From the sequence record LC494302.1: DNA of 64,000 nt; one strand, 5' to 3'. Under the pieces are notes generated by a model. It did not search any database and had not been told where the DNA came from. It worked only from the letters and a program-made list of their open reading frames with translations. The DNA is from Escherichia phage SP27. The position numbers were made by a program, and so were the translations under genes. Of the stretch, positions 14,490 through 32,280 are shown piece by piece (position 1 is the first letter of the stretch; every line of letters begins with the position of its first letter).

Positions 14490-15082
14490 ATGCAAATAAA
14501 TGTTGTAGTGCAGATGTGCATTTGTTTTTTAAGAAATTAGTAAATGATATTATCTATATGCAAGAAATCATTTATCACAAAAGAATGGACTTAGAAAAAG
14601 CATTAGTTCAGTTCTCTTTTATGCTGGATGGGATTATTACTCTAGATGGTGATGGATTGCGTATAGCATTTGACGGTAATTCAAATAGGGTTTTCTATTG
14701 GATGAATAATAAATTATGTTCCTCAATTTGCCGCACTTTTTATAACCCTATTTCGGACTTATATCAATTGGTGTATTCTAAAGGTGCAGTAGAAGCATCA
14801 TATGGTGATAGTTATGCCCTAGGAAAGAGTATTCCATATATGCAATCATTTGATATTGAATTAGTCAGTACTGATGAAGATGCAATGTTCACAAATGATT
14901 TAACGATGGAACGTGAATCTGCAATGAGATATATTACAAATTCTATGCATACATTCTTTCAACGAGTAGAATTTGATAATGTATATATAGCAAATGTAAA
15001 TATTTTTACTGACCTGTGTCAGTACTTGAGAAGTGTTTGTGATTTTGATGAAAGCTATTGTAAGCTTTATACTGAGGTATAA
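14480..15082 (+). CDS. hypothetical protein (possible degenerate FQxS member)
   Basis: 200-aa ORF; only a weak DEDAMFTNDL match. Confidence 0.55.
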   Translation: MPINANKCCSADVHLFFKKLVNDIIYMQEIIYHKRMDLEKALVQFSFMLDGIITLDGDGLRIAFDGNSNRVFYWMNNKLCSSICRTFYNPISDLYQLVYSKGAVEASYGDSYALGKSIPYMQSFDIELVSTDEDAMFTNDLTMERESAMRYITNSMHTFFQRVEFDNVYIANVNIFTDLCQYLRSVCDFDESYCKLYTEV

Positions 15083-15087
15083 AACAA

Positions 15088-15450
15088 ATGAACACATTAA
15101 GTATTACATACTATACAACTAAAAAATTAGTTACTTGTTTAATATCATTGAAGACAAACCATGATGATATGTTTGATATGGCTGCATATGAATTAGAATT
15201 ATCAGAAGATGGCTTCAAGAGCTATGAAGTATATAGCTATGTTCGTGAAGATGTAATTGACACTACACTAATGCAAGAGGATGAGTTATTCCAAGAAAGT
15301 TTAGTATGGGATAATAAGTACGATTGTAACTTTGATTTCTTATGTTTAATCCAGAAAGAAATGAAAAGAATCTTTGATAATTATCCAGTGAAGAGATTGA
15401 GTACTGGACCGGAGCAGTACAGGAGAATTTTATTCCGTTATGAAGACTGA
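15088..15450 (+). CDS. FQxS-motif paralog family member
   Basis: motif MQEDELFQESLVWDNKYDC. Confidence 0.65.
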   Translation: MNTLSITYYTTKKLVTCLISLKTNHDDMFDMAAYELELSEDGFKSYEVYSYVREDVIDTTLMQEDELFQESLVWDNKYDCNFDFLCLIQKEMKRIFDNYPVKRLSTGPEQYRRILFRYED

Positions 15451-28186: not shown

Positions 28187-29035
28187 ATGTTAGACATTTC
28201 AGATTTTCTTAATTTTAAAAAGTATTCAGTACTTGAACATATCAACGAATTTCTGAATTCTACTACACCATTTGGTATCAGTACATCAGATGCATACGAT
28301 GGATATACAATCTTCCCATACAATGACTTTCAAATTTCCGTCAAAAAAGGTTTTACAAAAGAAGTTGCAATTCGTGATGTAGTAATGTATAGCGATTCTT
28401 CTATTTCTTACTGTCATGATGTGAACAAGTTTGAATCTCTTGCAACACCTAATTGTTCATACTACAAATCACATGACACGATGATGTATAAAGAACAACA
28501 TATCAATGGTGTTTCGTTCTATAAAACTAGCAGTGATAAATCATATACATCTAGAGATGATTTTGGAAAATACACATGTACTATGCACACGGATAATGAA
28601 AAAACAAATTACACTCATTCATTCGAGTCCAAATTCCAAGAGAGTGAAGTTTCAAATATCACTATACAAGAACAGGTTTCAGAAGGCATTGTATATCGTA
28701 GCACTGCATTCTTTCGCATGAAAGATATTGCCACAGGCAGACCAATGATGTACAATATTGACATATACATGAAAGGTGATATATCCGAAGTAGTGATTAG
28801 TACTGGTTATCGTGAAAAATATACAGTTACAATGGAATCACCAGATGCATCATTAGTTCATCTCTTTAACAATTTATATACATTCCAATTCGAACTTAGT
28901 TTCGATCCAAATGAATATCAAATATTTGATATATTAAAAAGTAATATTATTAATAAGTTAGAATATTACTACAAGTTAGGTGGTAAGATGTGCATAGTTA
29001 ATACTATGTTACATAACATAAAAGAAACATTATAA
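28187..29035 (+). CDS. hypothetical protein
   Basis: ATG 28187 after GAGGA; about 282 aa; no FQxS core. Confidence 0.6.
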   Translation: MLDISDFLNFKKYSVLEHINEFLNSTTPFGISTSDAYDGYTIFPYNDFQISVKKGFTKEVAIRDVVMYSDSSISYCHDVNKFESLATPNCSYYKSHDTMMYKEQHINGVSFYKTSSDKSYTSRDDFGKYTCTMHTDNEKTNYTHSFESKFQESEVSNITIQEQVSEGIVYRSTAFFRMKDIATGRPMMYNIDIYMKGDISEVVISTGYREKYTVTMESPDASLVHLFNNLYTFQFELSFDPNEYQIFDILKSNIINKLEYYYKLGGKMCIVNTMLHNIKETL

Positions 29036-29051
29036 ATCTGGAGGATTTGGT

Positions 29052-29345
29052 ATGGATACTAAATTCAAAATTATTTTTAAAACTAAGCCGTATATTCCAC
29101 ATACAGCAGAACGTTTTATACCACATGGTGCTGAGGAAATTATTCACCAAGATGGTACTAAGTTATACCTTGTTCCTTGTTCTTATGAACGTGCAGTAGA
29201 AATGTTACTAATGAATGCTAGACTATGCAAAAACAAGTACATTAGTTACCTATACAATGAACATATTTTAGATTTCAATGATGAAAATATGTTCATTCTA
29301 GCAATTGAGGATTTTGATAACTGGTACAATATTATTAAAATCTAA
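29052..29345 (+). CDS. hypothetical protein
   Basis: 97-aa ORF with RBS GGAGGA. Confidence 0.6.
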   Translation: MDTKFKIIFKTKPYIPHTAERFIPHGAEEIIHQDGTKLYLVPCSYERAVEMLLMNARLCKNKYISYLYNEHILDFNDENMFILAIEDFDNWYNIIKI

Positions 29346-29353
29346 TGAAAATA

Positions 29354-29401
29354 ATGTGAACATATTAGATTCTTGTGATATAATGTTCACATCTTTTTTT
29401 T
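29354..29401 (+). terminator. intrinsic terminator whose loop embeds an extended -10 promoter
   Basis: perfect 10-bp arms ATGTGAACAT/ATGTTCACAT, 19-nt loop, T8; TG-n-TATAAT at 29376-29384. Confidence 0.65.
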
Positions 29402-29417
29402 GATAACGGAGATATAG

Positions 29418-29804
29418 ATGAATACAAGTTCAATCCTAAAAGCAATTGGTGGTGTTTTACTCATTGAAGTAAAAGGTGAACCAAAGCTATGCTGTTTAGA
29501 AGATATGAAGAATACAAAACACTTCAGTACTGGTCAGATTTTCAATGCCATTCGTATTCTAAATGACAAATCCATTGCTGATTATGGAAAAGTTTGGCCT
29601 GTATATCAAAATGCTGATGGTGATATCAGTACTGATTGGAAAACAATTGAGGCGGTACGACAAAGTTGTGAGAGTGATTGGGACTTCATTGTTGAAGTTT
29701 GTGATCAACTACAAGAAGATGTTCCAGAAATTGTCGAACGAAAAGAAGTCCTAGCACGACTTGAAAAATTCCGTCACGGAACACTACAGTATGACACAAT
29801 CTAA
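29418..29804 (+). CDS. hypothetical protein
   Basis: 128-aa ORF with RBS GGAG. Confidence 0.6.
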   Translation: MNTSSILKAIGGVLLIEVKGEPKLCCLEDMKNTKHFSTGQIFNAIRILNDKSIADYGKVWPVYQNADGDISTDWKTIEAVRQSCESDWDFIVEVCDQLQEDVPEIVERKEVLARLEKFRHGTLQYDTI

Positions 29805-29853
29805 TCTGCTTATTAAAAATATCTAATTAACATTATATAAAAGGAATTTAAAA

Positions 29854-30159
29854 ATGGAAGACAATGGAATGAAATTTGATATGTTTGAAGGTGTACCAGA
29901 GTTCGATTTCAATAAACTTGAAAATGGTGAAGAATCAGAACTAGTAAGTGTTACACTAAAATCAGATACCAAAAAGAAATATTCCCCATCAGTTCGTTCA
30001 CGTTCTCAAGAAGAATATGAAACCTTCATTGAGAGTATTCATTACGAAACGTTCCATCATGCAGATGGTACTCCGTATGAAGTTCGTGTTACAGTACTGA
30101 AGCCTGAAGTAAACCCAATGGAAAATCTACGTCCTGTTTACTGCTGGGCAAGCCACTAA
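29854..30159 (+). CDS. hypothetical protein
   Basis: 101-aa ORF with RBS AAGGAA. Confidence 0.6.
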   Translation: MEDNGMKFDMFEGVPEFDFNKLENGEESELVSVTLKSDTKKKYSPSVRSRSQEEYETFIESIHYETFHHADGTPYEVRVTVLKPEVNPMENLRPVYCWASH

Positions 30160-30210: not shown

Positions 30211-31059
30211 ATGAAACTTTATCTAATCGTTGACTACAGTAAGGGTTATTATGACTACGCAGAAGAATCTGAAGGGTATTGCTCGTCTACTAATGTCAAT
30301 GTACGCACCAGTAGTACACATGAGCATGAATCTATTACAAACCTAAAAGATTTCATCGCATATCGAGCATTTGAAAAGAATTTCTGTCGTAGTAGATATT
30401 CGAAGTTTGAGTACCCGTTAATTGATGTTCCTGATGAATTGATGTTCCAGTTAATGCTCACTGGAGTACAAGATTATGATTACATCGCGTACAATCACAT
30501 TACTAAGAAAATTTATATCGGTACGTCAACACATGACATTTCTATGTATGCATCATGCCCCGATGATCGAATGAATGATAGAAAATCATACTATAGTGGT
30601 TCAGTTGGTTCAAATGATTCATTAAATGAAAATTTATTCTTTGAGTACGAGTTTGATAATCATCGAGGGAAAAAAGACCGAGAAGATTATTGTACTGAAA
30701 TTGATAGTACCAATGGATATGAAGAAGTGAAAGAAGCGATAATGCCATATATCCTTGACAAGTACTACAAAGATTTTCAGTACTGTAGTAATTTTCTAAT
30801 CCGAAATTCTATCATAATCGGTCGTCAAAGTACTGCATTCTCTAAGTACTACAATGATTCCCCTGTTGCTGAAAATGAAAACTGTAATATTCTCTCAATC
30901 CCACGTGAAGATATGGTATTCATGTTCACATCTTTCATTGAAGATGATGAGTTGTATGTAAAAAACAAGCACAGGTTCATGCCAAGTAAGATTGAGGTTA
31001 TGAGAAGCTTAAGTGCAGATATCTTAACTAATTTCACTGAAAAAACAGAATACAACTGA
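30211..31059 (+). CDS. hypothetical protein with internal FQ-type motif
   Basis: 282-aa ORF; motif PDELMFQLMLTG. Confidence 0.6.
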   Translation: MKLYLIVDYSKGYYDYAEESEGYCSSTNVNVRTSSTHEHESITNLKDFIAYRAFEKNFCRSRYSKFEYPLIDVPDELMFQLMLTGVQDYDYIAYNHITKKIYIGTSTHDISMYASCPDDRMNDRKSYYSGSVGSNDSLNENLFFEYEFDNHRGKKDREDYCTEIDSTNGYEEVKEAIMPYILDKYYKDFQYCSNFLIRNSIIIGRQSTAFSKYYNDSPVAENENCNILSIPREDMVFMFTSFIEDDELYVKNKHRFMPSKIEVMRSLSADILTNFTEKTEYN

Positions 31060-31089
31060 GACATACCATAAGTTTATGATATAATGTAA

Positions 31090-31122
31090 GGTGACAGCAG
31101 AATATGTTGTCGCCTTTTTTTT
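31090..31122 (+). terminator. intrinsic terminator
   Basis: 10-bp stem GGTGACAGCA/TGTTGTCGCC (2 G-U pairs), 5-nt loop, T8. Confidence 0.75.
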
Positions 31123-31659
31123 AATCCTGAAAGGTTCCATATGGAAATGATTAAAGCCTAATCCACTCGAAAAGTAGAGGGTAGATGAGTAGTCCTTTCA
31201 GTACGAACAGCAAATGAAACCCGTTAGATGATGGCATAGTTTGAACCACTCACGGCAATGCGGCTGTATAAAGAACTCCAATAGGATAAAGAGAGTTCCT
31301 CGATAGACATATAAGGATCGCACCTTACCAATTATCTAAGGGAGATTTCATGAGAAATTTGCGGTCGGAATTATACAATATAGTTGCGTCCAAATTTTGT
31401 GAAATCAAATACAAGTACTGGTCATATGGTATTTGTATTATGTGTCGGGATGTTTAAGACCGACGACCGTTGCTACAAGAACCGCGATAGAGAGAAACAG
31501 AGCAACCCGCTTTCGTCTCGTAAGAGAATTCGTGATATGAACTATGTGAAGGCCACCAGCGTCAAACTTTTTTGTTCTTTCCCCTGCGGGGGGATGAAAT
31601 ATGCTCAAGCAAACCCCGTCAATATTAATTAAAAGAAAATAGTACTTGTAGAATTAGAC
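31123..31659. other. ORF-poor, GC-richer island; candidate structured or non-coding RNA region
   Basis: about 530 nt with no convincing CDS in a genome otherwise near 95 percent coding. Confidence 0.4.
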
Positions 31660-32280
31660 ATGCGTAGCATGGTAATTCTACTGATGTTGATGAAATCAAC
31701 GTCACGTATATTCATTGATGTTTCCATAGGAATAATGATGGCATTTATTAGAAAAGAAAAAACTGTTACTTATAAAACTTTGAATTTTGATGATTGCATT
31801 AATCAATCACAAGACGAAGATATCTTTACTGGATATGTGGTTATTAAAGAAAAAGGATGCATTTCTTATATAAAGGAATTGCAAAATGGAATTGAAGTGA
31901 CTTCAGTTAAATTACTTCCTACTCAAAAACCAACAATATCAAAAGCCCAGTATGGTAATTATTTTGAAGAAAGATATAGTAATAATTCAATAAGTGTTAA
32001 GGCTCATATTATTAAAGGAGAACTAGAAGGAGAATATAGAAAATACAACCCACAAGGAAAATGTGTTTGGGTTAAATACTTCAATTCAGGATATGATGTA
32101 ACATCTGAAATTATAGAGTTCTTAGGTTTAAAATGTACCCCTGAGACTATTCATGATTACAAGTTCAATACTGAAGAAGAGTTTAATCTGATGATGCGTT
32201 ACGGTTCACATTTTAAATTTTTATATGAATATAACATTGACAGTAGTACTTTTGATAAGATAGTACACAACTGTCTCTAA
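31660..32280 (+). CDS. hypothetical protein
   Basis: 206-aa ORF; start uncertain (ATG lies in a 9-bp hairpin GTAGAATTA/TAATTCTAC). Confidence 0.5.
   Translation: MRSMVILLMLMKSTSRIFIDVSIGIMMAFIRKEKTVTYKTLNFDDCINQSQDEDIFTGYVVIKEKGCISYIKELQNGIEVTSVKLLPTQKPTISKAQYGNYFEERYSNNSISVKAHIIKGELEGEYRKYNPQGKCVWVKYFNSGYDVTSEIIEFLGLKCTPETIHDYKFNTEEEFNLMMRYGSHFKFLYEYNIDSSTFDKIVHNCL

Follow-up and report, generated by a model that had tools for sequence, protein, structure and literature searches.

Large structured RNAs of phages and bacteria include the 'ornate' RNAs ROOL, GOLLD and OLE (PMC12286853). In addition, RNA sequencing of PA5oct, a distant Rak2-like jumbo phage, defined ncRNA001–004, which are 236–619 nt long and free of open reading frames (ORFs); two of the four, ncRNA001 and ncRNA002, are highly transcribed (PMC7318152). 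Here, we analyzed 64,000 nt of Escherichia phage SP27 (LC494302.1), hereafter the window, which is 99.9–100% identical to Escherichia phage vB_Eco_slurp01 (slurp01), a 348-kb jumbo phage of the PBECO4/121Q type (Asteriusvirus). A preliminary description, made from the sequence alone, had singled out one region of the window as a candidate non-coding RNA or a degraded insertion. We conclude that positions 31057–31704 very probably constitute a gene for a structured non-coding RNA, predicted to be ∼0.5 kb long up to a repeat annotated R2 and ∼0.6 kb long with the 3′ hairpins. To our knowledge, large RNAs of comparable conserved architecture are rare, and those found earlier are almost all machines or catalysts (the ribosome, RNase P, introns) or assemblies (ROOL, GOLLD).

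Like ROOL, GOLLD and OLE, the RNA is hundreds of nucleotides long, has many covarying helices and pseudoknots, and is encoded by stand-alone genes of phages or prophages. The long-range loop pairing of helix H10 could, as in the ROOL and GOLLD cages, form within one molecule or between molecules; its covariation within each gene fits either a contact in cis or a homomeric contact in trans. By contrast, the RNA did not match the Rfam models of these families. It occurs in Enterobacterales and jumbo phages rather than in Lactobacillales or the rumen, and differs further in having four to five diverged paralogs per genome, duplicated R1 and R2 boxes, and copies in integrase-bearing islands. The PA5oct RNAs are ORF-free loci of a similar kind in a related jumbo lineage, but the family profile found no similarity to ncRNA001 or ncRNA002 (1264–1499 and 14952–15402 of locus L122). 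The RNA is not described in the literature consulted on PBECO4, phAPEC6, CBB, Sharanji, fEgEco12, ROOL and GOLLD, or in a 2026 review of jumbo phages. Overall, we found no described counterpart to a family that combines a pseudoknotted core, R boxes that co-vary, paralogs in jumbo phages and copies in defence islands.

A sensitive nucleotide search using the 523-nt element of the window as the query matched 61 phage records, all of them jumbo phages of ∼310–390 kb. The matches were ∼70% identical over ∼470 nt and occurred at four or five places per genome, most of which are unannotated or labelled as spurious small hypothetical proteins. The matched phages were Escherichia phages, Salmonella phages Munch and 7t3, Erwinia phages, Yersinia phage fHe-Yen9-04 (Yen9-04), Serratia phage BF, Cronobacter phage GAP32, Pectobacterium phage CBB, Klebsiella phage Kae01, and Xanthomonas phages XaC1 and XbC2. 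The preliminary description had looked to relatives for conservation, and this was found: the 523 nt are ∼70% identical across genera whose flanks do not align. Judged by this comparison, conservation of the element across phage genera is far in excess of chance.

The slurp01 genome contains four copies, A to D, all on the + strand and ∼72% identical to each other, of which copy B is that of the window (Table 1). The family profile matched the window over 31120–31627 (nhmmer, E = 9e-120), and neither nucleotide nor profile searches detected a second copy within it. Copies in GAP32, CBB, BF and Yen9-04 recovered from IMG/VR likewise occupied a single strand within each genome. In Munch, GAP32 and CBB, copy B occupies a syntenic position, in the order terminator, element, hypothetical gene, Dam methyltransferase and nucleotidyltransferase. 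Copy D lies near recombination and baseplate genes and is syntenic with a Yen9-04 copy that adjoins a gp46-like recombination nuclease. Klebsiella phage K64-1 (Alcyoneusvirus) carries a divergent copy (AB897757.1, 279504–279981; 145 bits) of which BLAST detected only 70 nt; the family is therefore wider than nucleotide searches indicate. Finally, variants annotated as type 2, found in contigs of uncultured T4-like phages, share only the 3′ core with the family. They adjoin the portal (gp20) gene and a baseplate gene, a setting shared with copy D.

The comparative structure was derived from 33 non-redundant copies (<93% identical; median pairwise identity of 63%), aligned with MAFFT. In this alignment, A1, invariant blocks lie between compensating helices. 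RNAalifold yielded 66 pairs in A1, 40 of them with compensatory changes, and a column-pair scan supplied long-range and crossing helices. The curated structure comprises 93 pairs in 18 helices, three of which are pseudoknots. Standard pairs occupied 95.2% of cells, as compared to 77.5% when the 3′ partners were shuffled and 36–43% when the partners were slid by one to three columns. Changes on both sides occurred at 63 of the 93 pairs (42 when shuffled; 18–27 when slid), and the covariation score was 0.489 (0.177 when shuffled; 0.06–0.09 when slid). None of 500 shuffles reached any of the observed values. The compensatory substitutions that mark a structured RNA gene are thus present at levels above the controls. 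Many conserved pairs are G-U or alternate between U-G and C-G. On the opposite strand, such G-U pairs would become C-A mismatches, which identifies the + strand as the structured one.

The preliminary description had found no convincing coding sequence in the region, and the homologs bear this out. Across the 33 copies, the longest ORFs encode 29–102 amino acids and vary in strand and frame; in B-type orthologs, + strand ORFs among the two longest encode at most 34. The one frame of note in the window (31384–31632; 82 amino acids from a TTG start), also doubted in the preliminary description, is not present in the CBB, GAP32 and Munch orthologs. Searches of Pfam and PHROG with every ORF in the region returned nothing significant. 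A weak match of a minus-strand ORF to phrog_37483 (E = 0.002) probably reflects spurious gene calls over the element. Several GenBank records (JP4, SHEFM2K, WPEC3/5 and the SD-x Salmonella phages) call three to six overlapping 'hypothetical proteins' across it, and these are almost certainly false genes. A protein-coding gene or pseudogene was accordingly rejected: there is no conserved reading frame and no significant protein-family match. As judged by comparison of the copies, these data show selection on + strand base-pairing rather than on a reading frame.

The RNA gene appears to have its own promoter. By direct inspection of 57 non-redundant copies, an extended −10 element of the TGnTATAAT class or a close variant (e.g., TATACT) was found upstream of 52, and a TGRRAC box occupies the same position, ∼17 nt upstream of the −10 element, in most. 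The CBB genome paper describes a promoter class of CBB and GAP32, with the −35 consensus TGAAACG, that mainly precedes genes for DNA synthesis; the −35-like box of the window fits this class (PMC5259590). The strong terminator that the preliminary description placed before the region was recovered by a terminator scan: the stop codon of the upstream ORF (30211–31059) is followed by a 12-bp hairpin at 31088–31116 and a T-run that extends to 31122. In the B lineage, this hairpin begins 2–7 nt past the −10 box in every genus examined, and the order promoter, hairpin, body recurs in Munch, GAP32, CBB, Yen9-04 and metagenomic B-type orthologs. Such an overlapping promoter and terminator would insulate the RNA gene from upstream transcription.

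The 3′ end of the RNA is composite, consisting of the direct repeats R1 and R2, a C-run/G-run hairpin between them and two further hairpins, annotated part 2 (Table 1). In 57 copies, the cores of R1 and R2 were CGTCAG in both boxes (31 copies), CGTCAA in both (21) or CGACAA in both (1); three copies were discordant, and R1 was not found in one. The boxes are CGAAG and CGAAG in type 2, and CTTCAA and CTTCAA in K64-1. Direct repeats have no means of pairing with one another; that the two boxes change jointly therefore points to a single reader common to both, which could be a protein, a guide within the RNA or a processing activity.

The C-run/G-run hairpin is present in every copy, including those of islands, type 2 and K64-1, and has one-sided U-G to C-G changes at all five core pairs. 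It contains the local hairpin noted near 31581 in the preliminary description (CCCCTGCGGGGGG, 31581–31593), which is conserved in all copies. About one half of the 33 copies have T1, a terminator-like hairpin and T-run, after R1, and whole lineages lack it; in D-type copies, part 2 is followed by a second terminator. As RNA-type conservation continues past T1, the latter is at most a partial terminator. The region 31560–31737 has a folding z-score of −3.1. In most other lineages, part 2 consists of GAATTGAG, a stem with the loop ACGAAGTGA, and an AAAATTC-TTGAC-stem-loop-GGCAA element. Its stem compensates as CATTC/GAATG, CAATC/GATTG and CATAC/GTATG, examples that were read by hand as the alignment is poor there.

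Within the body, H1 through H15 include the three pseudoknots, H1, H10 and H12 (Table 1). H4 and H5 enclose the highly conserved strands GCAAA.GAAACCCGT and ACGGCAATGCGGC together with a variable hairpin. The H6/7 stem, GAACTC/GAGTTC in the window, reads GAACCAC/GTGGTTC and GAAGTAC/GTACTTC in other copies. The TAAGGGA that follows H8 is invariant and resembles a Shine-Dalgarno sequence; in the 33 copies, no conserved start codon or ORF follows it. The 3′ core is the sole part recognizable in the divergent type 2 variants.

Table 1. Coordinates of the RNA gene, its predicted structural elements and the slurp01 copies (window positions unless otherwise stated)
Feature	Position	Strand	Remarks
−35-like box TGAGACA	31057–31063	+	16 nt upstream of TATAAT; overlaps the stop of ORF 30211–31059
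Extended −10 element TGATATAAT	31077–31085	+	TGnTATAAT class
Intrinsic terminator of upstream gene	31088–31122	+	12-bp hairpin and T-run, between the −10 box and the RNA body
RNA body, part 1	31124–31565	+	nhmmer profile, A1, covariation
H1, pseudoknot, CTGAAAGG with CCTTTCAG	31127–31134 / 31194–31201	+	Crosses H3; both-side changes at 7/8 pairs; 91% of cells paired
H3	31189–31191 / 31202–31204	+	
H2, hairpin	31158–31184	+	Conserved loop GAAAA(Y)GTA, then (A/T)TGAG with GAG invariant; 7/8 pairs compensatory
H4 and H5	31207–31267	+	H4, 31207–31211 / 31263–31267; H5, 31221–31224 / 31252–31255; 100% of cells paired; 4/9 pairs compensatory
H6/7, hairpin	31273–31298	+	6/6 pairs compensatory
GATAGACATATAAGG...CCTTACC hairpin (H8) and TAAGGGA	31303–31346	+	H8, 31312–31315 / 31324–31327, 98.5% paired; TAAGGGA, 31338–31344
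H9, hairpin	31409–31438	+	
H10, pseudoknot	31421–31426 / 31536–31541	+	Pairing of the H9 loop; 6/6 pairs compensatory and 99.5% of cells paired (33 copies)
3′ core	31443–31541	+	H11–H15; near-invariant AGAAAC.G....ACCCGCTT
H11	31443–31446 / 31461–31465	+	
H12, pseudoknot, GTTGC/GCAAC	31469–31473 / 31502–31506	+	Crosses H14; 100% paired; 3 compensatory pairs
H13	31483–31487 / 31530–31534	+	100% paired; 4 compensatory pairs
H14	31490–31494 / 31510–31514	+	100% paired; 2 compensatory pairs
H15	31517–31519 / 31524–31526	+	
Repeat R1, CAGCGTCAA	31557–31565	+	Then T-run 31569–31574; T1 hairpin lacking in this copy
C-run/G-run hairpin, TTCTTTCCCC TGCG GGGGGATGAA	31575–31598	+	97.6% paired
Repeat R2, CCCCGTCAA	31614–31622	+	Direct repeat of R1
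Part 2, two stable hairpins	31648–31704	+	31648–31656 / 31673–31681; ∼31682–31704
Next gene, hypothetical protein (180 amino acids)	31738–32280	+	slurp01 CDS 136008–136550; fixes the RNA boundary, outside the RNA
Copy A	slurp01 29496–29947	+	Directly downstream of phage RpoD-like sigma gene (28430–29395)
Copy B	slurp01 135393–135915	+	Window 31123–31645
Copy C	slurp01 188038–188566	+	Between + strand hypothetical genes
Copy D	slurp01 266812–267285	+	Between two minus-strand genes

The family was then compared with catalogued RNAs. At gathering thresholds, none of the 4227 models of Rfam 15 matched the element in a scan of the whole window. At relaxed thresholds (E ≤ 10 for the region and E ≤ 3 for 14 homologous loci), only chance matches to the flanking terminators were returned. 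ARAGORN found no tRNA or transfer-messenger RNA (tmRNA) gene in the window and, with the Rfam result, leaves no match for the tRNA or T4-type small stable RNA that the preliminary description had raised. Each specific candidate was rejected on similar grounds. A tRNA or tmRNA has neither an ARAGORN gene nor an Rfam match. The group I intron model RF00028 has no match at E ≤ 10, and the element is intergenic, with its own promoter, after an upstream stop codon and terminator. Group II introns, RF00029 and its relatives, have no Rfam match in the window or the 14 copy-bearing loci. The RNase P RNA models RF00010, RF00011 and RF00373 have no match, and the two ACCCG-containing strands, being alike in sense, are unable to form a helix together. 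Small self-cleaving ribozymes also have no Rfam match, and a hammerhead-like GATGAG...CGAA varies at its core (GTTGAG, AATGAG). No covariance model of ROOL, GOLLD, OLE, HEARO or raiA matched at gathering or E-value thresholds. Likenesses seen by eye to the hammerhead, the sarcin-ricin loop, RNase P and the 11-nt receptor have core positions that vary or no matching model. The family lies outside all catalogued RNA families and, on these comparisons, would be a new RNA family; its activity could prove akin to a known mechanism.

Copies also occur outside phages. A search with a pattern of 24 specific bases identified 69 metagenome loci and 8 bacterial genome records, all of them homologs according to the family profile. 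The 8 bacterial copies and most of the metagenome copies are full-length; some metagenome matches are partial or cut at contig ends. The bacterial records include Serratia fonticola, another Serratia, Silvania, Enterobacter chinensis, Buttiauxella and unnamed Enterobacteriaceae. In these genomes, the RNA is carried by small integrative elements, where it comes directly after an integrase gene and faces a gene for a CI-like S24 repressor. Depending on the element, the integrase is either a tyrosine recombinase or a large serine recombinase. Among complete E. coli genomes, 2 of 5426 contain a full-length copy, left unannotated by PGAP, in a 10-kb island beside the ffs gene; that of strain LR-29-1 lies within NZ_AP027515.1 3473260–3485515 (locus L200, 1753–12256). 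The plasmid collection contained no match to the RNA.

The phage-type promoter, the R boxes, the G-run hairpin and part 2 are all retained in island copies. Most of these copies fall, in a neighbour-joining tree, in one clade with two copies from a 349-kb jumbo contig, while the E. coli island copy nests among C/D-type copies of jumbo phages. This placement suggests more than one transfer. The island backbone consists of an integrase, the RNA, in most cases a CI-like repressor, a membrane protein of 257–286 amino acids, a small secreted protein (LprI-like in island locus L137, 3733–14625) and a small resolvase. The cargo varies, with the Kiwa defence gene KwaB in one metagenomic island and DUF4326, DUF488 and dual-OB proteins in E. 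coli. DUF4326 is the only island protein with a homolog in the phage, and the phage homolog is not near any copy. The RNA resembles phage morons in forming an autonomous transcription unit that lies between unrelated genes and has a promoter and, in many cases, a terminator of its own, and in being found beside int and cI in temperate elements. By contrast to morons, its cargo is RNA rather than protein, and the copies in jumbo phages are not sporadic but ancient and syntenic.

The proposal of a non-coding RNA is thus strongly supported by a conserved promoter of its own, strand-specific G-U pairs, covariation over 18 helices and three pseudoknots. As to its function, we lean slightly toward an independent pseudoknotted RNA gene whose product acts in trans as a stable folded RNA during infection, with R boxes that are read by one factor. 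In this model, the RNA would be transcribed from its own TGRRAC-N17-TGnTATAAT promoter. The transcript of the window copy would start inside the upstream terminator hairpin and lack part of the 5′ arm, such that the hairpin would stop incoming transcripts and not those of the RNA itself. A compact core, held by the three pseudoknots, would display the invariant single-stranded motifs TGAG, GAAACCCGU, CGGCAAUGCGGC, UAAGGGA and AGAAAC..ACCCGCUU to a conserved partner. The RNA may be a protein-bound scaffold or an RNA-only assembly rather than the leader of a neighbouring gene, and R1 and R2 would be recognition or processing sites for one common partner. A trans-acting role is favoured because the paralogs have unrelated neighbours, because copy D stands alone between opposite-strand genes and many copies have their own terminators, and because the conserved architecture is on a scale typical of RNA machines or scaffolds.

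Several observations weigh against this model. In the window copy, a hairpin and T-run come right after the −10 box and, contrary to the preliminary description of a region flanked by terminators, there is no terminator on the 3′ side before the next gene. This copy could then arise only by read-through, or could be the leader of the downstream operon. The transcription start, 3′ ends and stability of every copy are predicted. No partner protein is encoded beside the copies, so gene context does not support a trans-acting role. The preliminary description had proposed RNA folding as a check, with a divided outcome: single-sequence folding of the window copy is unexceptional on either strand (z = −1.2 and −0.4 relative to shuffles), while the comparative structure is strong. 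Because single-sequence folds resemble shuffles, the structural claims rest on comparison between copies. In that comparison, controls that ignore phylogeny can overstate significance; the slid-partner control preserves relatedness.

The strongest rival, which we consider unlikely, is that an origin of the ∼350-kb genome lies at every copy. In this scenario, the transcript from a middle-type promoter would fold, stall or terminate at the T-run and G-run, form an R-loop and prime the leading strand; by carrying a copy, islands would have themselves replicated by an infecting jumbo phage. In T4, there are several origins, and a middle promoter forms the basis of each; the four or five dispersed, co-oriented copies per genome resemble that layout. 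Like T4 oriF and oriG and ColE1 RNA II, the present gene specifies a promoter-driven folded RNA, its length of ∼0.5 kb being that of RNA II. Further points of likeness to these systems are a promoter class shared with replication genes, here the DNA-synthesis genes of CBB, and a G-run near the putative 3′ end: an invariant GGGGGG comes directly after the T-run, in a genome of ∼34% G+C, and the DNA past R2 is AT-rich. The location of copy D beside recombination and baseplate genes is in keeping with an origin, as are islands that have no replication genes in the 8–15 kb inspected and yet carry one copy with a phage-type promoter. However, three pseudoknots and 18 covarying helices over 450 nt exceed what known origin transcripts need, and we know of no conserved pseudoknotted core or paralog family for oriF, oriG or RNA II. 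Moreover, conserved hairpins extend past the putative primer end: the G-run and part 2 hairpins keep U-G to C-G and compensatory changes beyond the termination point. Because these downstream hairpins retain RNA-type changes, function appears to continue past the supposed primer end. Finally, the cumulative GC skew has no inflection at 31.1–31.7 kb.

A self-processing ribozyme is less probable still. Its core would read the R box through an internal guide and cleave, or cleave and rejoin, at R1 and R2, such that the segment between them is released or removed. The joint change of R1 and R2 across deep lineages is what one shared recognizer predicts, the pseudoknotted core contains many invariant unpaired nucleotides, and the size and complexity are within the range of large ribozymes. 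By contrast, a search for an internal guide complementary to the R boxes gave nothing consistent: no guide covaries with R, and the helix of R1 with an upstream GACGA is 73% paired in A1. There is no match to hammerhead, hepatitis delta virus (HDV), twister, group I, group II or RNase P models even at E ≤ 10. A protein that binds both boxes would explain the repeats equally well.

We are slightly more doubtful of a cis-acting leader, that is, a giant 5′ untranslated region of the riboswitch or antitermination type that controls downstream read-through or translation. Such a leader would be in agreement with the arrangement of the window copy and its orthologs, in which no terminator separates the RNA from the genes that follow, and the mid-element T1 hairpin of many copies could be regulated. 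However, each paralog has different downstream genes, copy D is followed by opposite-strand genes and its own terminator, island copies face a divergent repressor gene, and T1 is missing from whole lineages. Last, a decayed gene, a mobile-element remnant or a missed known family (tRNA, tmRNA, intron) is highly improbable: a G+C-richer region without an ORF, in which some phage records annotate small hypothetical ORFs, would suit it, but the ∼70% identity across genera with compensatory changes, the ORFs that vary in strand and frame, and the absence of protein-family, ARAGORN and Rfam matches do not, and the degraded insertion or homing-endonuclease remnant of the preliminary description is further contradicted by the lack of any ORF remnant, the synteny across genera and the four to five ancient paralogs.

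A broader proposal, which we put forward tentatively and regard as improbable in its entirety, is that the RNA represents a new large-RNA class, either a ribozyme or machine that reads R boxes or an origin or primer, that is essential to Rak2-like phages and has been copied, with a phage-type promoter, by enterobacterial defence islands to sense, hijack or jam an infecting jumbo phage. The four to five diverged paralogs, the cross-genus synteny and the DNA-synthesis promoter class suggest a role that is central rather than accessory. Copies beside integrases, and an island with KwaB, suggest that the RNA takes part in conflicts between mobile elements. In dozens of jumbo phages, several of which are candidate therapeutics, the family has either no annotation or a false one as small ORFs, and Rfam and annotation pipelines would gain a new family. 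The function is open to direct test, since these phages are cultured and infect E. coli and its relatives.

The boundaries of the region were also revised. The gap without a conserved ORF spans 31060–31737: the half-kilobase gap of the preliminary description is real as to the absence of a coding sequence, but its length is corrected to ∼680 nt, up to the annotated start of the next gene. Neighbouring genes in the slurp01 record are mostly spaced by tens of bases. As the preliminary description stated, the region is G+C-richer than its surroundings (0.38–0.44 over 31100–31700 versus 0.28–0.36 in the flanks). The 9-bp hairpin that it reported upstream of the next gene exists as the first stem of part 2. 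By contrast, the ATG in its loop, at 31660, with which the longest ORF of the next gene begins, is probably not the true start. A start at 31738 is favoured because the slurp01 annotation and the length of the orthologs agree (180 amino acids versus 174–176 in GAP32, CBB and Munch); it is preceded by an AGGA ribosome-binding site. This gene is followed by those for the Dam methyltransferase and the nucleotidyltransferase.

Two minor observations concern other sequences. Positions 76124–78314 of slurp01 form a further stretch, of 2.2 kb, that has no annotated coding sequence, and the family profile gave no match there. Within the family, a module of ∼25 nt (TACAATATAGATCCGTCCAAAATT-like) occurs at either of two insertion points, depending on the paralog (columns 385–415 or 545–590 of A1, the first corresponding to window 31385–31406). 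Similarly, a variable hairpin after GAAACCCGTTAG has short and long forms that are swapped between paralogs. Together, these swaps point to modular exchange between copies.

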